A stretch of 64,000 nucleotides of DNA from the NCBI GenBank assembly GCA_003141835.1, contig PLNR01000005.1, forward strand, positions 53,108 to 117,107, in the 5' to 3' direction. Position 1 is the stretch's first letter, and each line of letters begins with the position of its first letter. A program made the translations under genes and the position numbers. A model generated the notes under the pieces. That model was not told the DNA's origin, did no database searches, and saw nothing but the letters and a program-made list of their open reading frames with translations. Below, one piece after another: positions 7,846 to 58,029 of this stretch. This DNA is from Candidatus Omnitrophota bacterium. GTDB lineage: Bacteria; Omnitrophota; Gorgyraeia; Pluralincolimonadales; Pluralincolimonadaceae.

Positions 7846-7855
7846 GAAGGAAATC

Positions 7856-9733
7856 TTGAAAGACCTATCGTTAAGCGTGGTTATCCCGACGTGCAACCGA
7901 AAAGAGGTCCTTAAAAAGTGCCTTGATGCGCTTTTTAGGCAGACATATCCCAAATCCGGTTATGAAATTATCGTCATAAACGACGGCTCGTCAGACGGGA
8001 CCGACGAATTGGTTGGATCTGAAATAAACCGTTCGCCTTGCGCTTTACGATATTTTAAACAGGAAAACAAAGGGCCTGCCGCGGCAAGGAATGTGGGAAT
8101 CATGAATGCGAACGGTAAGATCATCCTGATCATCGGTGACGATATTATCGCTGCCCCTACTTTACTGGAAGAACATGCTAACCGGCATAAACAATTTTCG
8201 GGCGAAAATGTGGCTGTGCTCGGATATGTAACCTGGTCGCCGGATTTAAAAATCAATCCTTTAATGGAGTTCGTCGAACAGGTGGGATTCCAATTTGGCT
8301 ATCCCTTGATCAAGGATCCCGACGATGTACCCTTCAATTTTTTTTATACGGCCAACATTTCCTTGAAAAGAAAATTCCTGCTGGAAAAAGGGTTATTTGA
8401 CGAGGATTTTAAATATCCGGCCTATGAGGATATGGAATTAGGCGCGCGATTAAAGAACAAAGGCTTAAGGATCATCTATAACAAAAATGCTATCGGCTGG
8501 CATTATCATTCGTATACCCTAAAAAAATTTTGTGAACGCCAAAAGATGGTAGGCCGCGCTTCTGAAATTTATTCTAAAAAATATTCACAACTGACTGGCA
8601 CCGCAGAGGTTGTTAAGCCCCGGGAGCGATTGCGCTTGAAGATCAAGTTATTAGAACCGCTGCTTTTAATATCCGAAAGGTTTAAAATAAAAAGTTTCTT
8701 GTTCAAGTATTATTACACTATTTTGGAATTTTACAAAAATTTAGGGTATACCGAGCAATTGAGAACTAAAAAAGTTTCCATACAAAAGGATTTTGTATCT
8801 ATAGTTATTGTCAACTGGAACGGCAAGAAATATATAATCCAGTGCCTCGAAGCCGTATTTAAGCAGACCTATAAAAATTTCGAAGTTATAATAATAGATA
8901 ATGGCTCAACGGACGGTTCGGACCGGTCGATCGAAAGTTATTTACCCCGGATCAGGCTGATCCGGAATCAGGCAAACGCCGGATTCAGCAAAGCCAACAA
9001 CCAGGGGATCAAATTCTCAAAAGGGGAATTCGTACTATTGTTGAATACGGATGCATTTATAGAGCCGGATTTTTTGGAGGAGGCGGTCAAAGCCGCTAAG
9101 TCAGACGAAAGAATAGGCCTTGTAACGGGTAAGATATTAAAACAGTCATCTGAAAGCGGCAAAAAGGTCATAGATTCGACAGGCCATACGGGCAGCAGGT
9201 ATAGGCGTTTTTGCGACAGGGGAGGGGACGAAGAGGATAAAGGGCAATACGATATTTGCGGATATGTATTCGGCGTCTGCGCCGCCTGCGGGCTGTATAA
9301 AAGGCGGATGTTGGAGGATATCTCAATAGACGGGGAATATCTTGACGAATTGTTTTTTTCATATTATGAAGATGTGGATCTGGGATGGCGGGCGCAGCTT
9401 CGGGGATGGAAAGCTTATTATACGCCCCTGGCGATCAGCTACCATGTTCGCGGCGGAAGCGGCCTCCACGGGCGTTTGGGACGTTGTTTTGATTATCGGA
9501 ATTGGCACCTGATGATTTTCAAGAACGATTCTTTATTTAATATATTAAAAGATTTCCGCCAGGTTTGCACTTATGATTATTACAGGTCGAAAACCGCATT
9601 TATTGAAGGATATCTATTTAAAAGCTGGTTTGGCATAATAAGGCTGCTTCCATCGGTTATAAAAAAGCGGTGGATCATCCAAAGAAAAAAGACGGCAACC
9701 GATGAATACATACGCAAGTGGTTTAAAACATAA
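7856..9733 (+). CDS. tandem two-domain family 2 glycosyltransferase (GT2-GT2)
   Basis: Two GT-A modules, each with the VVIPTCN/IVIVNWN start and a D-x-D/NDGS(D) signature: VINDGSSDGTDE at the N-terminus and IIDNGSTDGSD mid-protein. Confidence 0.8.
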   Translation: MKDLSLSVVIPTCNRKEVLKKCLDALFRQTYPKSGYEIIVINDGSSDGTDELVGSEINRSPCALRYFKQENKGPAAARNVGIMNANGKIILIIGDDIIAAPTLLEEHANRHKQFSGENVAVLGYVTWSPDLKINPLMEFVEQVGFQFGYPLIKDPDDVPFNFFYTANISLKRKFLLEKGLFDEDFKYPAYEDMELGARLKNKGLRIIYNKNAIGWHYHSYTLKKFCERQKMVGRASEIYSKKYSQLTGTAEVVKPRERLRLKIKLLEPLLLISERFKIKSFLFKYYYTILEFYKNLGYTEQLRTKKVSIQKDFVSIVIVNWNGKKYIIQCLEAVFKQTYKNFEVIIIDNGSTDGSDRSIESYLPRIRLIRNQANAGFSKANNQGIKFSKGEFVLLLNTDAFIEPDFLEEAVKAAKSDERIGLVTGKILKQSSESGKKVIDSTGHTGSRYRRFCDRGGDEEDKGQYDICGYVFGVCAACGLYKRRMLEDISIDGEYLDELFFSYYEDVDLGWRAQLRGWKAYYTPLAISYHVRGGSGLHGRLGRCFDYRNWHLMIFKNDSLFNILKDFRQVCTYDYYRSKTAFIEGYLFKSWFGIIRLLPSVIKKRWIIQRKKTATDEYIRKWFKT

Positions 9734-9746
9734 CGTCAGGACAAAT

Positions 9747-10913
9747 ATGGCTAAGATCAATGTCTTATATTTTACGCCGACCCTTGATATAGGCGGAGCG
9801 GAATGGACATTGTATATGCTGACCAAGAGCTTAAATAAGGAGAGGTTTACCCCTATCGTAGCTTACTTTTTTCGAAGCGGCCCATTGGAGGATCTGTTGA
9901 AGCAAAATGGGATAGAGGTCTTATGCGTCGGCCCAAATAAGGCTGATATTTCGAGGTGGGACAGGCTCAAGGCGGTTATAAAGCTTTCCAGGTTCCTTAA
10001 GAAAAGGAAGATCAAGATCGTCCACAGCTTTCAATTCGACGTGGATATATTGGGAGCTATAGCGGCGAAATTGGCAGGGGTCCCGGTCGTTATATCGCAT
10101 ATAGCGGGTGAAAGTTATCTTACATGGTTCCGGAAATATAAATGGCGATACAGGGTTATTTCCAGGTTTTTTATCGGTAAATATATCGCGTGCTCCAAAT
10201 TTTTAGCGGGACAGTTTATTTCGAGTTGCAATGTGAACAATGCGAAGGTGTTGACGATCCAGAATTGCGTTGACGAAGGGAGATTCCTTTCCCCGCACGG
10301 CAAGGATGAGAAGGGCTTGCGTGAAGAATTAGGTTTAGGCAATGAGGGGATCGTCATAGGTTGTGTAGCGAATTTTAGCCCGGACAAAGGACATCGATAT
10401 TTGATTGATGCTATCCCTAAAATCACGTCCTTATTTCCTAATATAAAAATTATATTGATAGGCAGGTTCTCCCCGTTAAAAGAGGGGCTTATAGAACAGG
10501 CAAAGACGCTCGGCGTCCTAGCTAATCTCATCTTCCTGGATTTTCATTTAAATATAGAAGAGGTCCTGGATTTAATGGACATATTTGTCTTACCGTCTTC
10601 ATCAGAAGGCTTACCGGTCGCGATTTTGGAGGCGATGTATATGGCTAAACCCGTTGTAGCGACCAGGATCGACGGTATCCCGGAGGCTGTTATTGAAGGC
10701 GAGACGGGAATTTTGGTGCCGCCAAGGAATAGCGGCGAGCTTGCCAAGGCGATAGTCTCTCTTTTGTCCGACAGGAATAAAGCCCGGGAGATGGGCAGAA
10801 TGGGCAGGGAAAGATGCCTTAAGGAATTTAGTTCAAGTGTTTTGATAAGGAAGGTCGAGGACCTGTATGAGTCGTCTCTTAACGAAAAAGATGCTAATTC
10901 ATGTTTTCCATAG
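9747..10913 (+). CDS. family 4 glycosyltransferase (GT4)
   Basis: GT-B fold signature EGLPVAILEAMYMAKPVVATRIDGIPE near the C-terminus. Start chosen at ATG 9747 (MAKINVLYF) to avoid overlap with the upstream stop. Confidence 0.8.
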   Translation: MAKINVLYFTPTLDIGGAEWTLYMLTKSLNKERFTPIVAYFFRSGPLEDLLKQNGIEVLCVGPNKADISRWDRLKAVIKLSRFLKKRKIKIVHSFQFDVDILGAIAAKLAGVPVVISHIAGESYLTWFRKYKWRYRVISRFFIGKYIACSKFLAGQFISSCNVNNAKVLTIQNCVDEGRFLSPHGKDEKGLREELGLGNEGIVIGCVANFSPDKGHRYLIDAIPKITSLFPNIKIILIGRFSPLKEGLIEQAKTLGVLANLIFLDFHLNIEEVLDLMDIFVLPSSSEGLPVAILEAMYMAKPVVATRIDGIPEAVIEGETGILVPPRNSGELAKAIVSLLSDRNKAREMGRMGRERCLKEFSSSVLIRKVEDLYESSLNEKDANSCFP

Positions 10914-11728
10914 TCTGCACGTATAATAATGAAAAGGTCATGGACGATTATTTGCTCAGGGGGCTGAAAGAGCAAACTTCGAGCTTTGAGCTGATAAAAG
11001 TGGATAATACCTCCGGCACGATCAAATCGGCTGCCGAAGGGCTTAACCGCGGCGGCAGAAGCGCAAAAGGAGATTATATAATCTTCATGCACCAGGATGT
11101 CTATTTTATGTCCGGAGAATGGCTGGAAAAGGCGGAGTCTTTTTTGAGGAAGATCCCGGATCTGGGAGTAGCCGGAATTGCAGGCATGAGAAAAGCGAAG
11201 GCCGCCGGCGCTTTTAAAGTCGGCGAGATCCCCGTTGAAAATCGGGCCTGTTTTGTGTATCAGGGGCCTGAAAAGAAGCCGAAAATGTACGGGAATGCTT
11301 TTGCCGGGCCCATAGAGGTGCAGACTTTAGACGAACAACTGCTGATAGTCCCGGGAAATGTTTTTACCGGCATTAAATTTGACGAAAAGACCTGCGACGG
11401 CTGGCATCTATACGGCGTGGACTATTCCCTATCGGTAAAAAAGGCGGGCCTGAAAGCCTATGTTTTGCCTTTGCCGGTATGGCACCTGTCCAGCAGACCC
11501 ATGGGCGATGAATATTATATAACTCTCGACAAGATCCTGAAGAAACACAAGAGAGAGAAAGTGATATATACAACCTGCGGATCATGGCACACATCCAATT
11601 TTTTCAATTGCTTGAACCTGGTTTTGATGGCGATAAAAGGCGGGATCGGGCGATGGACCGGCAGGAATAATTACGGCGCAGCCCCCTTTATAAGGACCAT
11701 GAAATTGCTGTTAGGAAACAAAAAGTGA
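10901..11728 (+). CDS. hypothetical protein, possibly GT-A-fold glycosyltransferase-like
   Basis: 275 aa with no secure motif. The N-terminus resembles the start of GT2-type enzymes (FSIVCTYNNE...VDNTSG). Inferred from locus context. Confidence 0.3.
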   Translation: MFSIVCTYNNEKVMDDYLLRGLKEQTSSFELIKVDNTSGTIKSAAEGLNRGGRSAKGDYIIFMHQDVYFMSGEWLEKAESFLRKIPDLGVAGIAGMRKAKAAGAFKVGEIPVENRACFVYQGPEKKPKMYGNAFAGPIEVQTLDEQLLIVPGNVFTGIKFDEKTCDGWHLYGVDYSLSVKKAGLKAYVLPLPVWHLSSRPMGDEYYITLDKILKKHKREKVIYTTCGSWHTSNFFNCLNLVLMAIKGGIGRWTGRNNYGAAPFIRTMKLLLGNKK

Positions 11729-11735
11729 TCAATCC

Positions 11736-12755
11736 ATGAAGATATTACTTTGCGCATCCAGTAATCCCCGCTTTATCGAATTGGGAGGATACGTGGAGAG
11801 GGCGCTGAATGCATTAGGGCATCGGTGCGAGAAGTTCGACTTTCGTCGATTTATTGTGCCCGGTGTCATAAGATACCGGGCTCCCCTTCTTAATAAATGG
11901 GATTTAAACAGGCTAAATCGTAGTTTGATCAGAAAAGTGTCTGAATACAGGCCTGACATTTTATTTGTAATCCAGGGGCATACGCTTTTTCCGGAAACGA
12001 TATCAGCGATCAAGCGAAGATTTGGGCCGACGACGATAAACTGGTTCCAGGATTATCCGAAGGATTTCGAAGTTTCTTTGAAATTAGCGCCTGTCTTTGA
12101 CCGTTTCTTTATGACCGACTCGTATGCTGTCCAATATCATTTAAACATTGGAAATAAGAATGTGAAATGCCTCCCTTTTGCTTGCGACCCCCAAATCCAC
12201 CGCCCTTTTAATTTAACAAAAGGGGAGCAAAAAACTTACGCGGCGGATATCGTATTTGTAGGCAGCATGTACGAATACAGGATCAAACTGCTTGAAAACC
12301 TGGTTGATTTTAACCTGGCAATTTGGGGACCGGGTTGGAAGAATTTGCAAGACAGGTCTTCATTAAAGAGATTTGTCAGAGGGGATGCTGTCATTCCTTC
12401 GGAATGGGTTAAAATTTTTAATGCGTCAAAGATCACATTTAATCATATCGGAGAATATAACATGCCTCCCTATCTTACGGGGAATAATATAGTTAATATG
12501 CGATTTTTTGAAGCGCTTGGTTGTAAGGCATTTCAAATAGTCGATTATAAAAAAGATATCTCCTCTTTATTATTCTCCGATAGGGAGGATCTGGTCTGTT
12601 TTAAAGATGATGATGAACTCAAGGAATTGGTCAAGTATTATTTAGCCCGCCCCGAGGAACGCAAAAGGATCTCTGAAAATGGCTATCGAAAAGTATTAGA
12701 AAAGCATACCTATATCGACAGGATGAAAGAGGTCTTTTCTTGTTTGGAGCAGTAA
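11736..12755 (+). CDS. CgeB-like glycosyltransferase (DUF3880 plus Glyco_trans_1_2-like)
   Basis: MKILLCASSN N-terminus and C-terminal RxxIxxxGxxxVLxxHTYxxRM pattern typical of the CgeB family. Clear paralog of 13706..14737. Confidence 0.5.
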   Translation: MKILLCASSNPRFIELGGYVERALNALGHRCEKFDFRRFIVPGVIRYRAPLLNKWDLNRLNRSLIRKVSEYRPDILFVIQGHTLFPETISAIKRRFGPTTINWFQDYPKDFEVSLKLAPVFDRFFMTDSYAVQYHLNIGNKNVKCLPFACDPQIHRPFNLTKGEQKTYAADIVFVGSMYEYRIKLLENLVDFNLAIWGPGWKNLQDRSSLKRFVRGDAVIPSEWVKIFNASKITFNHIGEYNMPPYLTGNNIVNMRFFEALGCKAFQIVDYKKDISSLLFSDREDLVCFKDDDELKELVKYYLARPEERKRISENGYRKVLEKHTYIDRMKEVFSCLEQ

Positions 12756-12757
12756 AT

Positions 12758-13702
12758 ATGACATCAAAATATGCAGATTGCATCGGTTGCGGAAATAAAA
12801 ATTTTAATTTTATATGTAATTTCTTCGATGGAAGTCGCAAATTTAAGGATAAATTGCGGCTTGTAAAGTGTAAAAGCTGCGGACTCGCGTTTATCAACCC
12901 TTTACCAAGCCGGGAGAAGCTGGAATCTTACGTTCAAAACCAGCTTTTTAGCGAAATAGACGACGGATCATATTTACCCCAGGTGAGGAAATTTTTATCC
13001 ATTAAAGATAAAGGAACGATTTTGGACATAGGCTGCGGAAGGGGATTTTTCCTTAACAGGATGAAACAGTCCGGTTGGTCCGCTTTTGGAGTTGAGCTAA
13101 ATGAACAAATGGCGGCGCAGGCAAAAGAAAAGCTTGGGCTTGATATCTTTTCCGGCACGCTCCGGGAGACAAGGTTCCCCGACGGGTCCTTTGATGCCGT
13201 AAATTTGCGCCATGTTTTGGAGCACCTGTTATCGCCGTACCAGGCCTTAACCCACATTCATAGACTGCTAAAGCAGGACGGGATCATTGTTATCACCGTG
13301 CCTAATTTTGAAGGCTTCCAAAGAAAGATATTCGGCAGATATTATTTGGCGGTGGCCGGAATATTTCACATCTCCCAATTCACTCCCCGCTCATTGAAGT
13401 CGTTATTGGAAAGGGCGGGTTACCGGGTGATCTCGACCAAGACATTTCAAGAGAGCGCTTCTGCGTGGCTTTATGGAGAGAGCCTGAGGTATTTGTTGAG
13501 AGATCTCAGGTTGTATCCTCAAAAGCAGGCCCTGGCCGGAAGAAGCAATTCCCTTAACGGCGCCTCGCCAAGGCCCTCAAGCCGTATATCGGTAAAGGAT
13601 TCCCTGCATTCCATTGAGCAAATATTATTTAAGGCCGTCGGGGGGATCGGAGCGGGCCTTGGCATGGGAGATGTAATGATCTGCTGCGCAAGGAAGGTGT
13701 AA
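12758..13702 (+). CDS. class I SAM-dependent methyltransferase with N-terminal Cys4 zinc ribbon
   Basis: CIGCGN...CKSCG zinc ribbon, then ILDIGCGRGFF (motif I) and acidic motif II. Paralog of 23219..24061. Confidence 0.75.
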   Translation: MTSKYADCIGCGNKNFNFICNFFDGSRKFKDKLRLVKCKSCGLAFINPLPSREKLESYVQNQLFSEIDDGSYLPQVRKFLSIKDKGTILDIGCGRGFFLNRMKQSGWSAFGVELNEQMAAQAKEKLGLDIFSGTLRETRFPDGSFDAVNLRHVLEHLLSPYQALTHIHRLLKQDGIIVITVPNFEGFQRKIFGRYYLAVAGIFHISQFTPRSLKSLLERAGYRVISTKTFQESASAWLYGESLRYLLRDLRLYPQKQALAGRSNSLNGASPRPSSRISVKDSLHSIEQILFKAVGGIGAGLGMGDVMICCARKV

Positions 13703-36436: not shown

Positions 36437-37347
36437 AGAAACATTTAAAGAGATCCGTTATCCTGCTTGTGGTCGTCGCCATTTTAGCCGCAGCCTTATT
36501 TTATATAATGCCGCGCAAAGCGCCGAAAGGCATATTCCAGACTACCGGGATCATAGAAGCGACAGAAGTGAACCTTGCCCCGAAGATCTCCGAGCGGATT
36601 AAAGAGATCAGGCTCCACGAGGGGGATTACGTAAAGGAAGGCGAGGTCGTGGTGGTCCTTGATGACAGGAAGGAAAAAGCGCAGTACGAACAGGCCCAGG
36701 CCGACCTCGAGGTCGCGAAAGCGAACGTCCTGACCTCTGACGCTAATATAGAGAAGGCGAAGGTCAAGATCGAAGATACAAAGCGCGACCTCGGCAGGTA
36801 TTCGCGGCTTCTGGAAAAAAAATTGGCCGCTCAGAACGATGTCGACAAGGCGAAGACGGCTTACGATACGGCGGTCGCCGAGTTGAACGGGTCTGTTGCC
36901 CAGAAGACCCTATCCGAAGCGACCGTTAAACAGTCTGAAGCCGCTTTAACGGTCGCCAAAACAAATCTCGACGATACGGTAATTTATTCCAGTTTATCCG
37001 GGATGGTGGTCTTGCGGGCGTTCGAGCCCGGGGAGATGTCCTCGAACGGCACGACCATCCTGACTATTGTTGACTTGTCGGACATATGGGTGCGCGTAGA
37101 CGTGGAGGAGACGGTGGTCTCGAAGATAAAACTCGGCGATATCACGCAGGTCAGGGTAGATTCCCTTAAAGGCAGCGAATTCAAAGGCCGCGTCACCGAG
37201 ATAAACAGTGAGGGCGAGTTCGCGACCCAGCGAGACGTGAAGAGGGGCAGGCAGGATATCAAAACATTCAGGGTGAAGGTAAAGATAGACGAGCCGAAAG
37301 GGCTGTTTAAGCAGGGTATGACTGCCACAGCCGTATTCGGGGAATAA
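36433..37347 (+). CDS. HlyD-family periplasmic adaptor (membrane fusion protein)
   Basis: N-terminal TM anchor, long coiled-coil, beta-barrel/lipoyl-like segments (IIEATEVNLAPKISERIKEI...). Operon with the ABC and TolC genes. Confidence 0.8.
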   Translation: MKKHLKRSVILLVVVAILAAALFYIMPRKAPKGIFQTTGIIEATEVNLAPKISERIKEIRLHEGDYVKEGEVVVVLDDRKEKAQYEQAQADLEVAKANVLTSDANIEKAKVKIEDTKRDLGRYSRLLEKKLAAQNDVDKAKTAYDTAVAELNGSVAQKTLSEATVKQSEAALTVAKTNLDDTVIYSSLSGMVVLRAFEPGEMSSNGTTILTIVDLSDIWVRVDVEETVVSKIKLGDITQVRVDSLKGSEFKGRVTEINSEGEFATQRDVKRGRQDIKTFRVKVKIDEPKGLFKQGMTATAVFGE

Positions 37348-37354
37348 GGATGCG

Positions 37355-38365
37355 ATGGCATACGCGGCGGAAGTGAAAAATATAGTAAAAAAATTCTCGT
37401 CGGTCACGGCGGTCAACGATGTCAGCTTCTCGGTCAACGAGGGCGAGATATTCGGATTCCTGGGCCCAAACGGGGCGGGCAAGACGACATTGATAAGGAT
37501 ACTCACCTGCCTGATGAAACCGACATCCGGCCAGGCGAGCATAAGGGGCATCGACGTCGTCAAGCACCCGTCGCTTGTCAGGCGCAATATCGGCGTCGTC
37601 TCGCAGGCGCTTACCAGCGACCTCGACCTGACGGCTTATGAGAACCTGAATATCTACGGGAAATATTTCGATGTGCCGAAGAAAGAGCGCAAGCAGAGCA
37701 TAGATTACCTTCTCGGCAAGGTCGACCTGAAGGACAGGGCGAAGGACCTCGTCGCGACATACTCGGGCGGCATGAGGCGGCGCCTCGAGATAGCGCGCGG
37801 GCTCATACATAAGCCGTATATCCTGTTCCTCGACGAGCCGACGATCGGGCTAGACCCGCAGTCGCGCCGCGTGATATGGGAACTCCTGCAGAAGATACGC
37901 AAGGAGACGGGGCTTACGATATTCATCACGACCCATTACATGGACGAGGCCGATGTCCTCTGCGACAGGATAGGGATAATCGATTACGGCAAGATCGTGG
38001 CGCTCGACTCGCCGGCCAACTTAAAAAGGACCATCGGAGGTTTCGATATCATCGAGGTCACGCTCGGCAATTTCGGGACGGAAGCCATGGAAAAGCTCAA
38101 GGCGATGCCGTTTGTAAAGAGCGTAACCGAAAAGGATGAGAGTTTGCGGATATACGTCGAAGACGCCGCAAAGTCCATGCCTGTGCTCTTCGAAGAATTC
38201 AAGAAGACGGGTGTCATCATAGAGTACCTCGCGATACACGAGCAGACGCTCGAGGACGTTTTTATACATTATACGGGGAAAACAATAAGGGAAGCGGAAA
38301 CCCAAAAGGTGAACTTCTTTATAGGGGCCGGGGCCCCGAGGAAAATGCCGGGAGCCAGGATATGA
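37355..38365 (+). CDS. ABC transporter ATP-binding protein
   Basis: Walker A GPNGAGKTT, signature YSGGMRRR, Walker B ILFLDEPTIGLD. Confidence 0.9.
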   Translation: MAYAAEVKNIVKKFSSVTAVNDVSFSVNEGEIFGFLGPNGAGKTTLIRILTCLMKPTSGQASIRGIDVVKHPSLVRRNIGVVSQALTSDLDLTAYENLNIYGKYFDVPKKERKQSIDYLLGKVDLKDRAKDLVATYSGGMRRRLEIARGLIHKPYILFLDEPTIGLDPQSRRVIWELLQKIRKETGLTIFITTHYMDEADVLCDRIGIIDYGKIVALDSPANLKRTIGGFDIIEVTLGNFGTEAMEKLKAMPFVKSVTEKDESLRIYVEDAAKSMPVLFEEFKKTGVIIEYLAIHEQTLEDVFIHYTGKTIREAETQKVNFFIGAGAPRKMPGARI

Positions 38366-39474
38366 GAGCGCTGGCGGTAAGCGAAAGGGACCTGAAAAGG
38401 TTCATGCGCAACCCGTTCGTCATAATAGCGAGCATATTCATGCCGCTCATGTACCTTGTCATAATGGGCAATTCGTTCCAGGGCGAACTCAAGCACCTTC
38501 CGGTCCTCCTGGTAAACCAGGATAGCGGCCCTTACTCCAGGCGCGTGGTCGAATTACTTCAGGCGCTCGAGGACGGCCCCCGCACTCTCGAGATAACCAG
38601 GGAGAACGACCAGAAGAAAGCGGTCGACATGGTAAGGGACGGTTTTTATAAAGGGGTCATAATAATACCGCCGGATTTCAGCAAAAATGTCGTCAAGAAC
38701 GTGGAGCCGCAGGTCGGGCTGCTGCTGGATAATACCGATTCGATATCCGCGGGGAGCATCTCCGGCGCGGTCTCGAGGTCGATGGCTTACCTCAAATCCG
38801 ATTACCTGGCGGTCCGTCCGGACAGGGCGACGCCCCAGCTGCGCTCGATAGAATTATATAAGAAGATAGACTACGACGCCTCGCTGGTCCCGGGCATAAT
38901 CGTCATGGCGATATTCATGGGCACGACGTTCACCGGGGCGTTCAGCCTCGTCATGGATAAGTTCCTCGGCATACACGAGAGCTACCTGTCGACGCCGCTT
39001 ACCCGGTTTGACCTCGTCGCCGGAACGATAATGAGCGGAGTGCTCATCACGACGGTCATGTCGATAATAGTCATGATAGGCGGACTTATGATAACCGGGA
39101 TAAAGCTTGCGGGCGGCATAGGTACCCTCCTGCTACTGCTGGTCACGATGGTACTTACAGCCCTCGGGCTGTTGAGCATGATATTTACGGTACTGGGGCG
39201 GGCAGACCATCCGAGGATAGTCGGCGTGCTGGTAGGCTTCCTGAACGTCATATTCTATTTCCCGAGCGGTGCGGTCTATCCGATAGAGAGCCTGCCCAAC
39301 TGGTTAAGGGCTTTCGCGAAAGTCAATCCCGAGGCATACGCGGTGCACGCTTTCAAGGAACTTATACTTAAAGGTTCCGGTTTCACGGCGATCCGGGGTG
39401 ACCTTATGTTTTTCGTGGCGTTTATCGCGTTTATGTTATGTTTAGCGACTTTGACGTTCAAGAGGACGATGTGA
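38362..39474 (+). CDS. ABC-2 type transporter permease
   Basis: 370 aa with a large periplasmic loop after TM1 then 5 TM helices. Coupled to the ATPase by ATGA overlap. Confidence 0.8.
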   Translation: MRALAVSERDLKRFMRNPFVIIASIFMPLMYLVIMGNSFQGELKHLPVLLVNQDSGPYSRRVVELLQALEDGPRTLEITRENDQKKAVDMVRDGFYKGVIIIPPDFSKNVVKNVEPQVGLLLDNTDSISAGSISGAVSRSMAYLKSDYLAVRPDRATPQLRSIELYKKIDYDASLVPGIIVMAIFMGTTFTGAFSLVMDKFLGIHESYLSTPLTRFDLVAGTIMSGVLITTVMSIIVMIGGLMITGIKLAGGIGTLLLLLVTMVLTALGLLSMIFTVLGRADHPRIVGVLVGFLNVIFYFPSGAVYPIESLPNWLRAFAKVNPEAYAVHAFKELILKGSGFTAIRGDLMFFVAFIAFMLCLATLTFKRTM

Positions 39475-40832
39475 TGATATATATAAGGAAGATAGTTATA
39501 TTCTCGGCCGTGCTTGCGCTCATGGCGGCAAGCAGCGCATATCCCGCCGAGGCGGTTATCCCCGGTACGGCGACGCTAACCCTGGACGACTGCGTCAAGG
39601 CCGCGCTCGCGAACAGTCCCAAGCTGCAGGAAGCCGTCAGTAATGTTGACCTGAATAAGGCCGGGGTCGGTTCGGCGAAGTCCGCTTACCTGCCGCAGCT
39701 CTCGACTACAGCCAGCTACTTGCATTATGATACCTCGAAAGTTGCTTTCGGCTCTTTCGCGATCTCGAGCAACGTGGCAAACGCGTTCCCTGCGGTAGAT
39801 AAGAGATACGAAGTCTTATCGGAGAACACCGCCGTAAGCCAGCTTATCTGGGATTTCGGCCAGACGCTGAACAGGATCAAGTTTGCCAACGAGACTCTCT
39901 CGGCCTCGCAGTATGAGTTCCTTGAGACGCAGGAGAACACGATACTTAATTCCGAAAAGGGGTATTTCGACGCGATGCGCGCTCAGCTCCTGCTTGAGGC
40001 GGCGAAAGATAACTATGAGATGATGAAAGTCCACCTCGAACGCACAAAGGGATTCTTTGAGGTGGGATACCGGCAGGCCTATGACGTTACGAAGGACGAG
40101 GTCAACGTAGCTAACGCGAACCTCGACCTCGTGACCGCGAAGAAGAATTTCGAGATGTCCAAAGTGACGCTCAATAATATAATGGGGAATACCGGCGGGA
40201 CGGCATACAGGGTGGTCGAGATCGGGGATTTCAAACCGGACGAGATAAACCTTGATGAGGCGCTGAAGTCGGCGGCGTCAAACCGCGTCGAGCTCTCGAA
40301 GCTCCAGGCCAGGGCGCGGGCGGCCCAGGCCGATCTCGCGGCTAAGAAGAAAGGCAATTGGCCGGTCATCTCGGTCGGCGGCAGCCACCAGGTCAGCGAT
40401 ACGAGCACGCCCGGCGTCGGAAACGTCCATAGCTGGAACGCAGGGCCACAGATCAGTTGGCCGTGGTTCGACGGTTTCAAGACAAAGTCCGATATCGAGG
40501 CCGCGCAGGCGAACCTTAAGTTAGCCCAGCTCGGGATACAGGACGAGACATTGAACATAGCCCTTGAGGTCCAGAGCGCGGTGCTTTCTCTCGGGGAATC
40601 GAAGGAGCGGATCACCGCGACGGGAAAACTCCTCCAGCAGTCGAAAGAATACCTCGATATATCCAACGCGAGGTACGAGGAAGGCCTCGGCTCGATAATA
40701 GAAGTCACCGACGCAGAGAACTCGCTCGTCTCGGCCAGGCAGGGCCACGCCTCCGCGATCGCGGACTATTTGACCGCCTCCGCGTCATACCAAAAATCCA
40801 TCGGCGTCATCTCCCAGGGCATAGTAAAGTAG
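39474..40832 (+). CDS. TolC-like outer membrane efflux protein
   Basis: Signal peptide and duplicated OEP repeats (LTLDDCVKAAL...; ...EVTDAENSLVSARQ). ATG 39474 overlaps the permease stop by 1 nt. Confidence 0.8.
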   Translation: MIYIRKIVIFSAVLALMAASSAYPAEAVIPGTATLTLDDCVKAALANSPKLQEAVSNVDLNKAGVGSAKSAYLPQLSTTASYLHYDTSKVAFGSFAISSNVANAFPAVDKRYEVLSENTAVSQLIWDFGQTLNRIKFANETLSASQYEFLETQENTILNSEKGYFDAMRAQLLLEAAKDNYEMMKVHLERTKGFFEVGYRQAYDVTKDEVNVANANLDLVTAKKNFEMSKVTLNNIMGNTGGTAYRVVEIGDFKPDEINLDEALKSAASNRVELSKLQARARAAQADLAAKKKGNWPVISVGGSHQVSDTSTPGVGNVHSWNAGPQISWPWFDGFKTKSDIEAAQANLKLAQLGIQDETLNIALEVQSAVLSLGESKERITATGKLLQQSKEYLDISNARYEEGLGSIIEVTDAENSLVSARQGHASAIADYLTASASYQKSIGVISQGIVK

Positions 40833-40874
40833 ATTCTTCCGGTCGGCCCCCATATTTAACCCTCCTTATTATGC

Positions 40875-40902
40875 TTGAAATAAGCATTTCTGGCGTTATA
40901 AT
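40875..40902 (+). promoter_or_regulatory. sigma70-like promoter (TTGAAA-16-TATAAT) at the edge of the AT-rich islet
   Basis: TTGAAA at 40875-40880 and TATAAT at 40897-40902. The -35 lies inside a 6-bp-stem palindrome ATGCTT gaaat AAGCAT (40871-40887). Confidence 0.45.
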
Positions 40903-40922
40903 CATGTTATATGCTAAGGGCA

Positions 40923-40946
40923 CAGCCGCTGAGTTCAAACGTTAGG
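40923..40946 (+). repeat. 24-nt GC-rich direct repeat copy 1 (CAGCCGCTGAGTTCAAACGTTAGG) just 5' of a small-ORF start
   Basis: Matches copy 2 at 23/24 positions. Followed by an A-rich tract and ATG 40954. Ends in GTTAGG, which fits the GTTRRRY core-site consensus. Confidence 0.6.
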
Positions 40947-40953
40947 TTTAAAA

Positions 40954-41331
40954 ATGATTAATGAGCTAATAATGAAATTAAATGAGAAAAATATACCCTA
41001 TGTGAATAACGGCAAGGGTATAAAAATCAAAGGTAATTCTGACTTTGATATTGACATATATGATGAAGGGCATGAATTAACGCTGGCTATGGGCGAAACT
41101 CATTGTCACCGCGATACCATTGAAGAAGCTTTGAAAATTATAGATTATTCTTTAAGTGGAAAGCTAAAAATTGTTAATAAATTGCGCGGAACTACAGTAG
41201 TAGGGTCCCAAATACAGATAGTTGATTCTGATGGGAATAATAAGGTTTTAGAGTATTCTGGATCATTATTAAGCATTCTTTATTTTTGGAAGAAAAAATC
41301 ATTCGAAGAAAGATATTTCAAAAAAATCTAA
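40954..41331 (+). CDS. hypothetical small protein (125 aa) in AT-rich islet
   Basis: About 30% GC ORF in about 55-60% GC surroundings. No recognisable motif. Soluble, Lys/Asp-rich. Confidence 0.4.
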   Translation: MINELIMKLNEKNIPYVNNGKGIKIKGNSDFDIDIYDEGHELTLAMGETHCHRDTIEEALKIIDYSLSGKLKIVNKLRGTTVVGSQIQIVDSDGNNKVLEYSGSLLSILYFWKKKSFEERYFKKI

Positions 41332-41375
41332 CATTTCACTCCAGCGGACTGCGCCAACTACCTGTTTTAAAGTCG

Positions 41376-41399
41376 CAGCCGCTGAGTTCAGACGTTAGG
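41376..41399 (+). repeat. 24-nt GC-rich direct repeat copy 2 (CAGCCGCTGAGTTCAGACGTTAGG)
   Basis: 453 nt downstream of copy 1, again followed by an A-run then ATG (41408). An in-frame TGA overlaps the ATG (ATGA). Confidence 0.6.
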
Positions 41400-41407
41400 C
41401 ATAAAAA

Positions 41408-41656
41408 ATGAATAAAATAATAGACGTTTTGGGAATAGTTATCTATGCGATTTTAATCATAGCGTACTATCGTTTCATTACTAAAGAAAAAAGGATAGAA
41501 AATATATTTAATTGGCAAAAGAAAAATATTCCTTTCATTATGAAAACGCAGGGCTTAGATCAATATAAAGCATTTATGATTTGGGGCCATCGCTTACTTA
41601 TCGCATTTGGGCTTATTGCCTGCGCTTGTTGGTTATATCAAATATTTACCCAATAA
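41408..41656 (+). CDS. hypothetical small membrane protein (82 aa, 2 TM) in AT-rich islet
   Basis: AT-rich ORF with two hydrophobic helices (VLGIVIYAILIIAYY and LLIAFGLIACACWLY). No known motif. Confidence 0.4.
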   Translation: MNKIIDVLGIVIYAILIIAYYRFITKEKRIENIFNWQKKNIPFIMKTQGLDQYKAFMIWGHRLLIAFGLIACACWLYQIFTQ

Positions 41657-41669
41657 TCAGAAAAAGAAG

Positions 41670-42149
41670 ATGATTAAAGACTTCAGGTTCTCTGCGACAA
41701 ATGACGCATACCATGCGCACTCTGACAGTATGAAGTTCGATCTGTCACAACCACCTGTCGTTTGCACCTTTAAACGCCGCAATGCTCCCCAAGAGCTCAT
41801 CCTATCCATCGGACAAACACAGGGCGACGCTCAACGGGGTCCCACGTATCAAGATGTTGCGGCTCAAGGAGAGATCCGATTCTTAAATCCTTTTGAACCG
41901 GGCAGATTCAACGCCTTTTTAGCCGAGGCGGTTGTGCGTTACTATCTCGCAAAAGCGTCAAACACTCGCACGACCATCGCCAAGATCCTTGTGTTGATTA
42001 TCGGAGGTAAGTTCGAAGCCCAGCTTGACCTTTCAGGGTATGAGAATGTTTCGCCGGAGGGGCAAAGGGACTTCGAGTCGCGCCTCTCAAGCATTCTTTT
42101 GATCAGGACATGGAGAATAATACAGAAACCGAACAAACAAAACGGTTGA
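41670..42149 (+). CDS. hypothetical protein (160 aa)
   Basis: Open frame of normal GC immediately after the islet. Start chosen at the MIKDFRF ATG. No recognisable domain. Confidence 0.35.
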   Translation: MIKDFRFSATNDAYHAHSDSMKFDLSQPPVVCTFKRRNAPQELILSIGQTQGDAQRGPTYQDVAAQGEIRFLNPFEPGRFNAFLAEAVVRYYLAKASNTRTTIAKILVLIIGGKFEAQLDLSGYENVSPEGQRDFESRLSSILLIRTWRIIQKPNKQNG

Positions 42150-42174
42150 GTTTCAACCCGCGAAGTTATAGAAT

Positions 42175-42729
42175 ATGCCTGTGCCGGAGAAGCCAAGATT
42201 ACTTTTGCATGTCTGCTGCGCGCCTTGCTGCACCTACCCGATAACAGCCCTGCAGGATGAATTTGAGGTAGAATTATTCTTTTACAACCCGAACATCCAT
42301 CCTGAGGAAGAGTACAAGGCGCGGCTTGACGAGGCGGAGAGATACGCCGCTAAGATCGGCTTGATCCTGTACAAGTCCGCATACGAGGCAGACGCCTGGT
42401 ATCGCGCCACGTCAGGCCTCCAGGACGAGCCGGAGGGCGGCGACCGCTGCGAGATATGTTACCGGATGCGGCTGGGCAAGACCGCTAAGTTTGCCGTGGC
42501 TAATGATTTTGATTATTTCGCTACGACGCTGACTATCAGCCCGCATAAGGACGCGAAAAAGATAAACTCGCTCGGCGCGATGATCGCGGATATGTACATG
42601 CTGAAATTCCACGGCGCCGATTTCAAGAAGAAGGACGGTTTCAAGAAGTCCGCGCAGATGTCCAAAGAGGCGGGATTATACAGGCAGGATTACTGCGGCT
42701 GCCAGTACAGCAAAAAAGGGAAAGGCTAA
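42175..42729 (+). CDS. queH: epoxyqueuosine reductase QueH (DUF208)
   Basis: LLLHVCCAPCCTYP N-terminal Cys motif and C-terminal CGC..Y motif characteristic of QueH. Confidence 0.8.
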   Translation: MPVPEKPRLLLHVCCAPCCTYPITALQDEFEVELFFYNPNIHPEEEYKARLDEAERYAAKIGLILYKSAYEADAWYRATSGLQDEPEGGDRCEICYRMRLGKTAKFAVANDFDYFATTLTISPHKDAKKINSLGAMIADMYMLKFHGADFKKKDGFKKSAQMSKEAGLYRQDYCGCQYSKKGKG

Positions 42730-42731
42730 AG

Positions 42732-43046
42732 ATGAAGAAATGCCCGTATTGCGCTGAAGAGATACAGGACGACGCGATAAAATGCAAGCATTGCGGCGAA
42801 TTCCTCGATAAGCAGAAGCAGAAATGGTATTTCAAGACCTACTCCTTCGTGATAGCTTTCCTCTGCATCGGGCCGTTCGCCCTGCCGATGGTATGGTTCA
42901 ACCCTAATTACAGCAAATCGAAGAAGATGAACATAACGATCATAACTTTGGCGGTCAGCGTGGCGCTGACCATCGTATTCTGGGGCGCTTTCCAGTCTAT
43001 CGGAAGTTATTATAAGCAGCTCGAAGAATTGTTCCCGAAGGCATAA
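42732..43046 (+). CDS. zinc-ribbon membrane protein
   Basis: N-terminal CPYC...CKHC ribbon followed by two TM helices. Confidence 0.5.
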   Translation: MKKCPYCAEEIQDDAIKCKHCGEFLDKQKQKWYFKTYSFVIAFLCIGPFALPMVWFNPNYSKSKKMNITIITLAVSVALTIVFWGAFQSIGSYYKQLEELFPKA

Positions 43047-43384: not shown

Positions 43385-43723
43385 ATGAAGAGCAGACTGT
43401 TGACGACCGCAATTTTAGTATTGGTAGTGATCGGACTTTTATCGGTAAGCTCGCCTTCATACGCCCAGGGTGCCTTGAATAAGCTAGGCCGCGGAGTCGT
43501 GAATACATTGACCGGCTGGCTCGAGATCCCGAAGGGGATAGTCGATGAGAGCAAGGCCAATAACGTATTCACCGGGCTGACAGTCGGGACGATAAAAGGA
43601 TTAGGCTTAGGCCTGGTCCGTACCGGCGCGGGTATCTATGAAGCCCTGACGTTCCCGTTCCCGATCCCCGAAGGCTATGCGCCAATCGTAAAGCCTGAGT
43701 TTGTTTATTCTAACGAAAAGTAA
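43385..43723 (+). CDS. small exported protein, possibly exosortase-system-associated (TIGR04073-like)
   Basis: Signal peptide. LNKLGRGVVNTLTGWLEIPKG pattern recalled from the about 100-aa putative exosortase-associated family. Assignment is from memory, not verified. Confidence 0.4.
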   Translation: MKSRLLTTAILVLVVIGLLSVSSPSYAQGALNKLGRGVVNTLTGWLEIPKGIVDESKANNVFTGLTVGTIKGLGLGLVRTGAGIYEALTFPFPIPEGYAPIVKPEFVYSNEK

Positions 43724-43742
43724 AATCTTGTAGTCGGAAGGA

Positions 43743-43769
43743 AGAATCTTGCGGGGCCTTGGAAAAGGC
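43743..43769 (+). terminator. rho-independent terminator
   Basis: GGGGCCTT ggaa AAGGCCCC perfect 8-bp stem followed by GTTTTTT. Confidence 0.8.
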
Positions 43770-43928
43770 CCCGTTTTTTAAGGCACAATTCGAAACGTGA
43801 ATAATTAATCTTGACAAGGCCCTGTTTATATGGCAATATTAAAACAACCTACTTAATAACAATACCTTACATACCTGTTTTAAAAAGTCCCCTGCTGCAA
43901 AAATTACATTTGGAGAAGGAGGCCTTGA

Positions 43929-45884
43929 ATGCGTTTTAAAGCATTTCTTCTTATCGGTTCTTTTGTGGTGCTATTGGCGGGCCATGCGGCGCCGGCTTTT
44001 ACGGCAGTCGCCAAGCAGATAGCGCCGCTTTTTGACCCGGGAACCGAAGAAGCGGTTGACTACGCCAAATACGGTGAGTTCAAGGGCATAGGCACCGAGG
44101 CTTACAAGTATGAGATCAAAGACAGGCAGGGCCTTGCCGCAGCCGTAGGCGAGGGCATATATCCAAACACCAGCGTCACCAAAGACCCCGCATACAGGGA
44201 AGCGCAGGCGAGCGGGAAGCTCGTGGGAAAACACTGGGATTTCGTGAATAACGAGGACCAGATGCTCGCCTTTTACAAATGGGCGACGGCAAGCGAAGAA
44301 TCCGGCGTAAAGCTGTATTATACCGCCGCTGCCCTCGCCAGGTCCGGCCACACGCTCCAGGCGATAAAAGCATATTATGCGGTGCTGGTGAATTACCCGA
44401 GGTCGATAGGCTGGACATATTGGCACACCCCGCTTTATAGCTCGAAGATGGCATTAAATGACATCGAATACCTTACCAGGACCCATCCGGAGCTGGGCAT
44501 TAAACTGGTGGGCGCTAAGATAACCGTAGAAAATTCTTTCGACAACGACGTATCCAACGACAAATTCATCATAGACCCGGGAAAACTCGTCAAGGTAAAA
44601 CCCGAAGAAGTCATCCCCCCGAAGATAGATCTCTCAAAACTTAAAGTCATCAAGACCGCAGGCGGCGCGCACGTCAAGCTCGTCGAATACGAGAACGGCC
44701 ACTGGCAGCTTTTGGTCGACGGCAAGCCTTTCCCGATGAAGGCGATGGCGTATTCCCCGAACAAGGTCGGCCTCTCGCCTGATAACGGCTCCCTGAACGT
44801 TCAGACCGACTGGATGACCGCGGATTTTAACAAGAACGGCAAGATCGACGGGCCGTATGACGCCTACGTCGACATGAATAAGAACAACAAGCAGGACCCG
44901 GACGAACCGTTCGTCGGCGATTTCCAATTAATGAAGGATATGGGGGTCAACACTATACGCCTTTATCACCATTCTACCAATAAAGACCTCCTTAAGGACG
45001 GTTACGAGAAGTACGGTTTCATGTACCTCATGGGCGATTTCCTCGGGATGTACGCGGCCGGCTCGGGCGCGGATTGGTATTCGGGCACCGATTACACCGA
45101 CGAAGGGCAAAAGAAGAAGATGATGGATAGCGTCAGGCAGGTCGTCATGGAATATAAGGATGAACCTTATATCCTCATGTGGGTGCTTGGCAACGAGAAC
45201 AATTACGGATATCCCGGCACGCCTGATGTCGAACCGGGAATGGGTTGCCGCGCGAAACTCCAGCCCGACGCCTATTACGCCTTCGTCAACGAAGTCGCTA
45301 AGATGATTAAATCGATCGACCCTAACCATCCGGTCGCCATCTGCAACGGCGAGACGGTATATCTCAATTATTTCGCAAAATATTGCACGGATGTGGACGT
45401 CTTCGGCGCGAATGTCTACCGCGGCCCGAACGGTTTCGGGAGGACGTATTGGGAGGATGTAAAGGACCTGACCGGCAGGCCTTCGATCATAACCGAATAC
45501 GGCTGCCCCTCTTATTTTAAAGATGATCCGGAAAAAGGGGAGACACTGCAGGCGGAATACCATAAAGGCAACTGGGAAGACATCGCCTATAATATGGCCG
45601 GCTCGGGTTTCGGCAATGCCCTCGGCGGCGTCTGTTTCGAATGGGTGGACGAGTGGTGGAAGGCAGGGCCTCCGCCGCAGCTTGATCCGGCGAAGCAGGA
45701 GCCGGAGGGCTGGGATTACAAGACAAAATCAAAGACCCCGGGGAATTTCCGCGGGCCGTTCCCTGACGGATGGCTGCATGAGGAATATTTGGGTGTGACA
45801 AGCCAGGGTAACGGGTCTGACAGCCCGTTCTTAAGGCAGATAAAGAAGGCTTATTACTGGTACAAGGAAAACTGGACAAAATAG
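43929..45884 (+). CDS. secreted multidomain glycoside hydrolase, clan GH-A TIM-barrel (paralog of 47863..49236)
   Basis: Signal peptide and N-terminal about 200-aa helical domain. Core with MKDMGVNTIRLYHH, WVLGNENNYG (acid/base NE) and ITEYGCPSY (nucleophile E). EF-hand-like insert DFNKNGKIDGPYD. Confidence 0.6.
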   Translation: MRFKAFLLIGSFVVLLAGHAAPAFTAVAKQIAPLFDPGTEEAVDYAKYGEFKGIGTEAYKYEIKDRQGLAAAVGEGIYPNTSVTKDPAYREAQASGKLVGKHWDFVNNEDQMLAFYKWATASEESGVKLYYTAAALARSGHTLQAIKAYYAVLVNYPRSIGWTYWHTPLYSSKMALNDIEYLTRTHPELGIKLVGAKITVENSFDNDVSNDKFIIDPGKLVKVKPEEVIPPKIDLSKLKVIKTAGGAHVKLVEYENGHWQLLVDGKPFPMKAMAYSPNKVGLSPDNGSLNVQTDWMTADFNKNGKIDGPYDAYVDMNKNNKQDPDEPFVGDFQLMKDMGVNTIRLYHHSTNKDLLKDGYEKYGFMYLMGDFLGMYAAGSGADWYSGTDYTDEGQKKKMMDSVRQVVMEYKDEPYILMWVLGNENNYGYPGTPDVEPGMGCRAKLQPDAYYAFVNEVAKMIKSIDPNHPVAICNGETVYLNYFAKYCTDVDVFGANVYRGPNGFGRTYWEDVKDLTGRPSIITEYGCPSYFKDDPEKGETLQAEYHKGNWEDIAYNMAGSGFGNALGGVCFEWVDEWWKAGPPPQLDPAKQEPEGWDYKTKSKTPGNFRGPFPDGWLHEEYLGVTSQGNGSDSPFLRQIKKAYYWYKENWTK

Positions 45885-57734: not shown

Positions 57735-57867
57735 AATAAATTTCCGGGAGCTCTTGACAAATCCGGGATATATGGTAAAATATCTGCCAGTAAGATCGTT
57801 ATAGACAAAGGCGTTCCACATTGGGGCGTCTTTTTATTTTTACAAAATACACGCTTAATTTCTCATT

Positions 57868-57992
57868 ATCACCCGCGTCTATCGGGGATAAAAGAGGAAG
57901 CGGGGGAACCAAGTTTTTGGGGCGAATATCTGAAGTTTAGATTAGGGCCGCTCAGCCCGAGTCCGACAGCTAACCTCGTCAGCCCATTTTAG
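57868..57992 (+). ncRNA. candidate c-di-AMP (ydaO/kimA-type) riboswitch in kdp leader
   Basis: Leader contains CGGGGGAACCA, GGGGCGAAT and CCGACAGCTAACCTCGT blocks resembling the two pseudo-symmetric conserved segments of the ydaO motif. Followed directly by a terminator. Assignment by memory only. Confidence 0.4.
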
Positions 57993-58029
57993 AGAGAACA
58001 CACCGGAGAATGCGTTCTCTGGTTTTTTA
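57993..58029 (+). terminator. rho-independent terminator / attenuator upstream of kdpF
   Basis: AGAGAAC (14-nt loop) GTTCTCT then GGTTTTTTATTT. Confidence 0.7.

Follow-up and report, generated by a model that had tools for sequence, protein, structure and literature searches.

Introduction

Small groups of integron recombination sites that stand without an integron integrase have been given names of their own: a cluster of attC sites of this kind is called CALIN and a single attC is called SALIN (Cury et al. 2016, as cited in Loot et al., bioRxiv 10.1101/2022.09.11.507474), and IntegronFinder defines a CALIN by at least two attC sites with no integrase gene (intI) nearby. The consensus of the core pair of such sites is quoted as RYYYAAC/GTTRRRY (PMC5027507), the extrahelical base (EHB) mutants of the attCaadA7 site are named G16 and T23 (PMC5027507), and HS287, GCSGCTKANCTCVRRCGTTAGSC, is the classic degenerate attC primer (PMC10963911; also PMC2669170). 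In a full-text literature search 'integron' and 'Omnitroph' occurred together in four papers only, and none of these had 'integron' in its title; the present locus documents integrons and a widely shared HS287-type attC class in Omnitrophota. In this article we describe an AT-rich islet of a Candidatus Omnitrophota contig (PLNR01000005.1), situated between an efflux operon and a QueH gene, in which two small open reading frames (ORFs) are each preceded by the same GC-rich 24-nt element. The window referred to throughout is the whole stretch of 64,000 nucleotides (64 kb) that was analysed.

The islet is most probably what decay has left of a sedentary chromosomal integron, its integrase lost, in an Omnitrophota-like genome. 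This type of locus is already known: it is an integron remnant without integrase, and the islet, with one intact and one half site, counts strictly as a SALIN or may be called a minimal CALIN.

Results

The repeated element is the right-hand arm of an attC site

The 24-mer CAGCCGCTGAGTTCA(A/G)ACGTTAGG was found on the plus strand at 40923-40946 (copy 1) and 41376-41399 (copy 2), 453 nt apart and identical in 23 of the 24 positions. The likeness between the copies reaches about 40 nt (85%), and the sequences between and after them are unrelated. There was no further copy in the 64 kb even with up to three mismatches allowed, and no chance copy is expected (0 in 100 shuffles), thus the GC-rich repeat, with the identity and spacing given in the preliminary description, is a genuine feature of the locus.

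Copy 2 forms the right arm of an attC that is complete and is built in the order of R'' ATCTAAC (41326-41332, overlapping the stop codon of ORF1), L'' TCACTCCAGCGGACTGCG, loop, L' CGCAGCCGCTGAGT and R' GTTAGGC (41394-41400). The RYYYAAC/GTTRRRY pair of this site is complementary, with five Watson-Crick pairs in the R box and two adjacent ones. Its bottom strand folds at -16.3 kcal/mol (z -4.0, none of 200 shuffles being as good) and its top strand at -14.1 kcal/mol, into a bulged, imperfect hairpin in which the R and L boxes are separated by unpaired spacers and the bottom strand exposes two extrahelical single bases, a T at position 23 and a G at position 16/17 from the 3' end. The match to HS287 is 22/23 in copy 2 and 21/23 in copy 1, and the other arm of the complete site agrees with HS286 in 20 of 23 positions. 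A covariance model was built from 13 attC sites taken from the genome loci that share a 22-mer of the arm (see below), the site of the window included; in the underlying alignment 86.8% of the cells were paired, against 14-42% when the partners were slid. On the window this model marked 41323-41403 with 87.3 bits (E 3.6e-22), a score to be read with the site being among the 13 training sequences. The repeated 24-nt element is the L'-R' right-hand arm of integron attC sites. Recombination of the complete site by IntI is predicted at the G|TT of R', and by the G|TT convention cassette 1 extends over 40942-41394 (453 bp). It had been described earlier that the element immediately precedes each ORF; the position is correct, but the element does not belong to the ORF that follows, being instead the 3' end of the attC that closes the cassette before it. 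The whole-window Rfam scan gave no match at the islet, and there was no tRNA or tmRNA to indicate a site of integration.

Copy 1 retains the L' arm and the R' core GTTAGGT (40941-40947) only, without a complementary L''. It scored 21.3 bits with the covariance model (40870-40950), the left arm being mismatched throughout and the right half alone fitting, and its fold z-scores (-0.5 and -0.75) were no better than those of shuffles. The only upstream RYYYAAC, ATTTAAC at 40854-40860, is a single chance-level match and forms together with copy 1 a poor 94-nt fold of -8.4 kcal/mol. A generic scan of 40600-42400 for RYYYAAC...GTTRRRY combined with folding returned the same two candidates as the covariance model, the left one folding badly. 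Because only the right half matches the model and the left candidate folds poorly, copy 1 is a half attC, a truncated relic which is unable to form the recombinogenic hairpin. The folding check proposed for the junctions therefore had a divided outcome: copy 2 gives a bulged attC-like hairpin (z -4.0) whereas copy 1 does not.

With the filters off, the covariance model marked no other site above 9 bits in the window than 41323-41403 and 40870-40950. We also weighed whether the hairpin GGTTGAgttTCAACC with the GTTATAG behind it (42144-42171) is a relic attC, but it stayed below 9 bits and was rejected. The hairpin and the GAAGTTATAGAAT after it (42144-42174) directly precede the start codon of QueH; on the minus strand the hairpin had a terminator-like score, and on the plus strand a promoter-like site (9/12) overlaps it.

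The same arm in integron arrays of other genomes

A scan for the 22-mer of the arm, covering one genome per species, led to 12 genome loci (L003-L014) in Omnitrophota (5 loci), Syntrophales, Desulfobacterales, Gammaproteobacteria, Ideonella/Burkholderiales, Flavobacteriales and Planctomycetales. All matches with complete sequence have full attC architecture, and the covariance model revealed more than 40 further attC sites in these loci, most of which carry several sites at a spacing of 0.4-1 kb. An intI gene adjoins the array in two of them, L010 (Ideonella; TIGR02249, 449 bits) and L012 (Omnitrophica WOR_2; 409 bits; cutoff 265). The genome-wide search which had been recommended for the repeat thus found further copies at 12 loci, with attC architecture in every complete sequence and beside IntI genes at 2. 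The five nearest relatives of the attC at 41326-41400 are all Omnitrophota attC sites (69-79% identity), the others reaching 59% at most, and the Omnitrophota cassettes have 26-41% GC with GC-richer attC sites, which is the same pattern as that of the islet.

The 22-nt arm GCCGCTGAGTTCAAACGTTAGG recurs without change in integron arrays from seven or more bacterial lineages of distant relationship, combined with differing left arms and loops; a shared constraint of integrase recognition or the passage of cassettes between phyla may be the reason.

A complete integron at the same junction in a relative

The locus L012 (Omnitrophica WOR_2 bacterium RIFCSPLOWO2_12_FULL_51_24, MHHC01000038.1) is syntenic with the window: L012:3-3816 corresponds to window 37012-40835, the HlyD, ABC, ABC2 and outer-membrane efflux (OEP) proteins sharing 68-75% amino-acid identity. 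After the OEP stop codon of L012 there follow Phd, RelE, then intI in convergent orientation to the toxin gene, the promoters Pint/Pc directed toward intI and the cassettes, respectively, and AT-rich cassettes separated by attC sites. One of these sites (90 bits) carries the identical 22-mer; the cassettes encode an S26 peptidase-like protein and a 157-amino-acid ORF. In L012:3871-5736 the toxin-antitoxin pair stands between the efflux operon and intI, outside the cassette array, and no more than 4 nt separate the ends of the toxin and intI ORFs.

Three further relatives, L015, L017 and L018, were found with the OEP protein as query (72%, 71% and 84% identity to that of the window, respectively). 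In L015 QueH starts 4 nt after the OEP stop codon, which represents an empty site, and L015:1490-2220 matches window 42179-42904. In L017 and L018 the Phd/RelE pair is present and attC-like sites with other cassettes come after it, and intI is missing. The contents of the OEP|QueH junction thus differ in the four relatives. Because OEP is followed 4 nt later by QueH in L015, window ~40833-42174 is extra DNA relative to this empty site, which includes a third ORF of normal GC (41670-42149). The islet had been delimited earlier to about 0.8 kb; its low GC was confirmed, but the inserted stretch is longer than this. With the attC structure of copy 2, the arm in 12 loci and the syntenic integron of L012, the suspected likeness to integron attC junctions between divergent AT-rich cassettes proved to be right.

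The integrase was searched in the 64-kb window with the IntI proteins of L010 and L012 as tblastn queries, and there was no match at E<=1e-3 (best E 1.2). The Phd/RelE proteins of L012 likewise had no tblastn match in the window, and no flanking transposase was seen at the cluster. The position of the scar between the OEP stop codon and the promoter (Table 1) is occupied by the Phd/RelE pair in L017, L018 and L012, and by intI too in L012. An attI could not be recognised in the window; the stretch which follows the promoter in L012 and L018 is replaced here by the attC L' arm.

A putative promoter upstream of the cassettes

The sequence TTGAAA-16-TATAAT is the best promoter-like site of the region 40500-42500 (11/12) and overlaps a 6-bp hairpin, ATGCTTgaaatAAGCAT (40871-40887), as the preliminary description had it. 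The suggestion that the islet has a promoter of its own did not hold, since the site corresponds in position and sequence to the cassette promoter of the ancestral integron platform as seen in L012. In that genome there are back-to-back promoters, TTGACA-16-TATAAT (12/12) toward intI and TTGAAA-16-TATACT toward the cassettes. The leaders were compared by pairwise local alignment with shuffle nulls: the leader of the window was similar to the stretch after the toxin gene of L018 (score 55, null 23.4±4.6, 0/500), and this leader of L018 to the intI-upstream region of L012 (score 58, null 31±5.1, 0/500). The window, L018 and L012 leaders have the same -35 hexamer, TTGAAA, and the same 16-nt spacer; a four-way MAFFT alignment was uninformative. 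The promoter at 40875-40902 is thus a putative retained Pc-like cassette promoter of the former integron.

On comparison of L018:1437-1520 with L012:4396-5840, the RelE stop codon of L018 was seen to lead straight into the homologue of the region upstream of intI in L012; an intI ORF of about 1.34 kb and the -35 box of Pint appear to be cleanly missing from L018.

Layout of the islet and its proteins

The GC content is 0.28-0.38 across ~40800-41700 in the GC profile of the window and 0.50-0.64 on both sides; by gene it is 0.307 in ORF1, 0.305 in ORF2, 0.561 in the OEP gene and 0.537 in QueH. The features are collected in Table 1. The OEP gene, which is the last of a TetR-HlyD-ABC-ABC2-OEP operon, lies outside the element. 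Cassette 2 has no attC of its own, and the 3' end of ORF2 directly abuts the ORF3 module.

Table 1. Features of the OEP-QueH junction in the window (coordinates of the 64-kb stretch)
Feature	Position	Strand	Basis
OEP/TolC-like outer-membrane efflux gene, left flank, host DNA	39438..40832	+	ORF list; Pfam PF02321
Scar, OEP stop codon to promoter	40833..40874	+	tblastn; RYYYAAC scan; L012 layout
Putative Pc-like cassette promoter, TTGAAA-16-TATAAT	40875..40902	+	11/12 match; leader homology
Copy 1, half attC (L' arm and R' core)	40923..40947	+	covariance model; fold z; HS287
ORF1, 125 amino acids, coding sequence of cassette 1	40954..41331	+	ORF list; homologues; AlphaFold
Complete attC, 75 nt, right arm = copy 2	41326..41400	+	covariance model; fold; HS286/HS287
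ORF2, 82 amino acids, coding sequence of cassette 2	41408..41656	+	ORF list; hydropathy
ORF3, 159 amino acids	41670..42149	+	single homologue; GC; not in L015
QueH gene, right flank, host DNA	42175..42729	+	Pfam PF02677

The two small ORFs, described previously as encoding a soluble protein and a protein with two transmembrane segments, were recovered as such from the ORF list and from hydropathy, ORF2 having two hydrophobic segments (residues ~1-26 and ~55-82). The upstream frames which had been noticed to end in ATGA/ATGATTAA turned out to be incidental to the A-rich leaders: at copy 2 there is a 41-codon frame crossing the attC, and at copy 1 the ORF list holds no upstream frame of at least 40 amino acids.

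Both small proteins had been reported to match nothing recognisable, and this remained true for ORF2 but not for ORF1. Word-indexed searches returned ORF1 itself only, nothing for ORF2 and one match for ORF3; a full phmmer scan of 1.8 billion representatives gave 12 remote homologues of ORF1 at E<=1e-3 (112-182 amino acids, 25-47% identity). The structure prediction which had been advised for ORF1 yielded a confident fold: AlphaFold with the family alignment reached a predicted local distance difference test score (pLDDT) of 93.1 and a predicted template modelling score (pTM) of 0.84, which suggests a soluble alpha/beta protein, member of a rare family. Pfam, NCBIfam and PADLOC contained no match for ORF1-3 or for the ORF1 family. 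This family is cassette-borne elsewhere too: an attC-like site overlaps the stop codon of the homologue P0005 (L085:408-479, 18.6 bits), and attC-like sites stand on both sides of P0012 (L092, 21.6 and 8.9 bits).

Several observations were made on other members of the family. Upstream of two ORF1 homologues (47% and 45% identity), which belong to the same ENA study series as the window, L083:300-330 and L084:10-35 read ATTTTGGnnCnATATAATC; their likeness to the promoter of the window (40878-40903) was 19/25 by eye, but the score of 28 fell within the null (maximum 42) and this resemblance was discarded. In P0013, a protein of 2462 amino acids, there are four separate stretches that match the centre of the ORF1 family (query residues 51-97), hence the small fold may also serve as a repeat module in this giant protein. 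In L086:1-4366 P0006, without a detectable attC, stands just downstream of genes with Pfam hits to Fic, Methylase_S (weak) and SduA_C, a neighbourhood which looks like a defence island.

ORF2 had no homologue among 5.8 billion proteins and is absent from the gene calls of the source collection; the chance of 83 stop-free codons at the composition of the islet (34% GC) is p 0.0011. ORF3 has a GC content of 0.49 and a GC content at third codon positions (GC3) of 0.54, against a GC3 of 0.71-0.74 in the host genes. Its sole homologue, 62% identical, is on an unrelated 1-kb contig, and the similarity of the two at the DNA level begins at the ribosome-binding stretch tcagaaaa(a)gaagATG. ORF3 is not in L015 and has no recognisable attC; judged by these sequence features, it was probably acquired as well, or else represents the end of the array after decay.

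Other features of the window

The sole Rfam match in the window is a c-di-AMP riboswitch (ydaO/yuaA leader, RF00379) at 57842-57999 on the plus strand, full length, with 79.8 bits against a gathering threshold of 38. A larger region of low GC (0.33-0.46) at ~1500-13000 is a surface-polysaccharide cluster on the plus strand, with a Wzy-like ligase, a flippase, three radical-SAM/B12 enzymes, an epimerase and several glycosyltransferases, and contains no attC sites. An AT-rich intergenic dip (GC 0.365-0.39) at 43700-43950, upstream of a GH2-like gene of 651 amino acids, had no attC match either.

Discussion

Origin of the islet

The ancestral locus at the 3' side of the efflux operon would have consisted of Phd/RelE, intI, divergent Pint/Pc promoters, attI and an array of AT-rich cassettes with GC-rich attC sites, in which the integron integrase would have captured the cassettes by recombining the folded attC bottom strand at the G|TT of the R' core. 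In the lineage of the window the toxin-antitoxin pair, intI and attI would then have been deleted, with one deletion endpoint falling inside an attC, so that the L'-R' arm (copy 1) was left just downstream of the Pc-like promoter. Cassette 1 (ORF1) with its intact attC, cassette 2 (ORF2) without attC, and ORF3 would be what remains. The former Pc promoter probably drives transcription of the cassettes, and read-through from the efflux operon is possible as well. Given an integrase in trans, cassettes could still be taken up at the one intact attC. Both cassettes, on the other hand, would now be immobile: ORF1 would not be excisable because its upstream partner site cannot fold, and ORF2 because it has no downstream site. 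The order of the deletions, like the activity of the promoter and the present immobility, we infer from the layout; the identity and structure of the attC, the absence of intI from the window, the synteny with a complete integron, the leader homology and the empty site were observed directly.

Several points weigh against this origin. The search for the integrase covered the 64-kb window only, one part of a contig of 443 kb. The efflux proteins share only ~70-75% identity with those of L012, which strictly leaves some room for independent acquisition of cassettes at a hot spot; the L012 sequence compared ends at 7792 nt, before any QueH gene after its array. The direct similarity of the window and L012 leaders is not significant (28 versus a null of 24.7±3.8), and their homology is transitive because it is supported through L018 only. 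Only one site of the window is a complete attC, and neither the covariance model nor the generic scan found an attC after ORF2 or ORF3, because of which the right end of the former array is not definable. Finally, ORF2, which lacks homologues, may not be a functional gene.

Alternative explanations

It is rather unlikely that one or two free cassettes were inserted freshly by an integrase at a genomic attG site and had never been part of a local integron. Isolated integrase-less cassettes are common, an origin by attC x attG insertion has been put forward for them (bioRxiv 10.1101/2022.09.11.507474), and both the lack of intI in the window and the clean empty site of L015 would be in line with such an event. 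Such an insertion, however, predicts genomic DNA up to the G|TT at the left end, where 18 nt of an attC L' arm stand upstream of the GTT, and a complete attC at the right end, where none follows ORF2 or ORF3. It also does not explain why the promoter leader has its homologue beside the intI gene of an integron which a syntenic relative carries at the same locus, or why three relatives have different cassette contents at the same junction. The possibility that the two copies arose by a local tandem duplication of 24-40 nt, or that they are a host regulatory or repetitive extragenic palindromic (REP)-like element of the 5' untranslated region (UTR) with no role in recombination, is highly improbable. 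There are only two copies in the window, and both stand 7-8 nt upstream of a start codon, to which they would supply AGG as a possible weak ribosome-binding site; but the DNA between and after the copies is unrelated, no Rfam family is present at the locus, copy 2 pairs with an upstream L''/R'' arm overlapping the ORF1 stop codon, and the occurrence of the 22-mer in 12 loci of many phyla, with attC architecture in every complete sequence and beside IntI in two of the loci, refutes this explanation.

The preliminary description had also compared the islet with immunity or orphan-toxin cassette arrays, and the cassettes could accordingly belong to a polymorphic toxin system. There is very little chance of this: no Rhs, CdiA, type VI (T6SS) or type VII (T7SS) secretion system toxin gene was found by Pfam within ±10 kb, where the neighbours are the efflux operon, QueH, NifU and glycosidases/glycoside hydrolases, the junction element is a bona fide attC, and the proteins of the ORF1 family are consistently in attC context. 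ORF1 resembles the fold of one immunity protein only weakly.

A decayed integron could have left more than a relic behind. The half attC and the old Pc promoter might be a retained functional module, either as a translation element in the 5' UTR of ORF1 or as a hybrid attI-like landing site, although we consider this improbable. In the latter case the half site and the intact attC would keep the junction a hot spot of cassette exchange with an integrase acting in trans. If the module existed, it would offer Omnitrophota a route to permanent, promoter-equipped chromosomal genes at a locus which stays recombinationally open.

Significance

Under the favoured reading, decay of a resident integron, the relatives can be arranged in a series at one junction: L012 is complete, L017 and L018 have lost intI and kept the toxin-antitoxin pair, the window has only the Pc-like promoter and cassettes, and L015 is empty. 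This series bears on the origin of integrase-less cassettes, for which erosion of integrons and attG insertion are the competing explanations, and erosion is favoured here. The odd AT-rich islet is explained by standard integron biology, with the current concepts unchanged. In addition, ORF1 defines a small, confidently foldable, cassette-borne protein family.

Comparison with known systems

The site at 41326-41400 has the same inverse-core/core pair, imperfect L''/L' stem, extrahelical T and G and variable loop as integron attC sites (59-base elements). The layout is also that of integron cassettes, in which a short ORF that lacks a promoter runs in the same orientation as the site and the site begins at its stop codon, and of integron arrays, in which GC-rich sites stand between AT-rich cassettes; the right arm is the HS287 consensus. 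Unlike chromosomal integrons, the window has one intact site, a halved upstream site and a last cassette without attC, and neither an integrase was found nor an attI recognised in its 64 kb. It shares with CALIN and SALIN loci the attC-bearing cassettes, the lack of a nearby intI and the small size of the cluster; what sets it apart is that its origin can be traced, as the Pc-like promoter and the synteny point to the loss of intI. The closest counterpart is the integron of L012, with which the window has in common the efflux operon upstream, the attC class with the 22-mer, the TTGAAA-16-TATAxT promoter and the AT-rich cassettes, whereas L012 retains Phd/RelE, intI and Pint, which are absent from the window, and the proteins of its cassettes are different.

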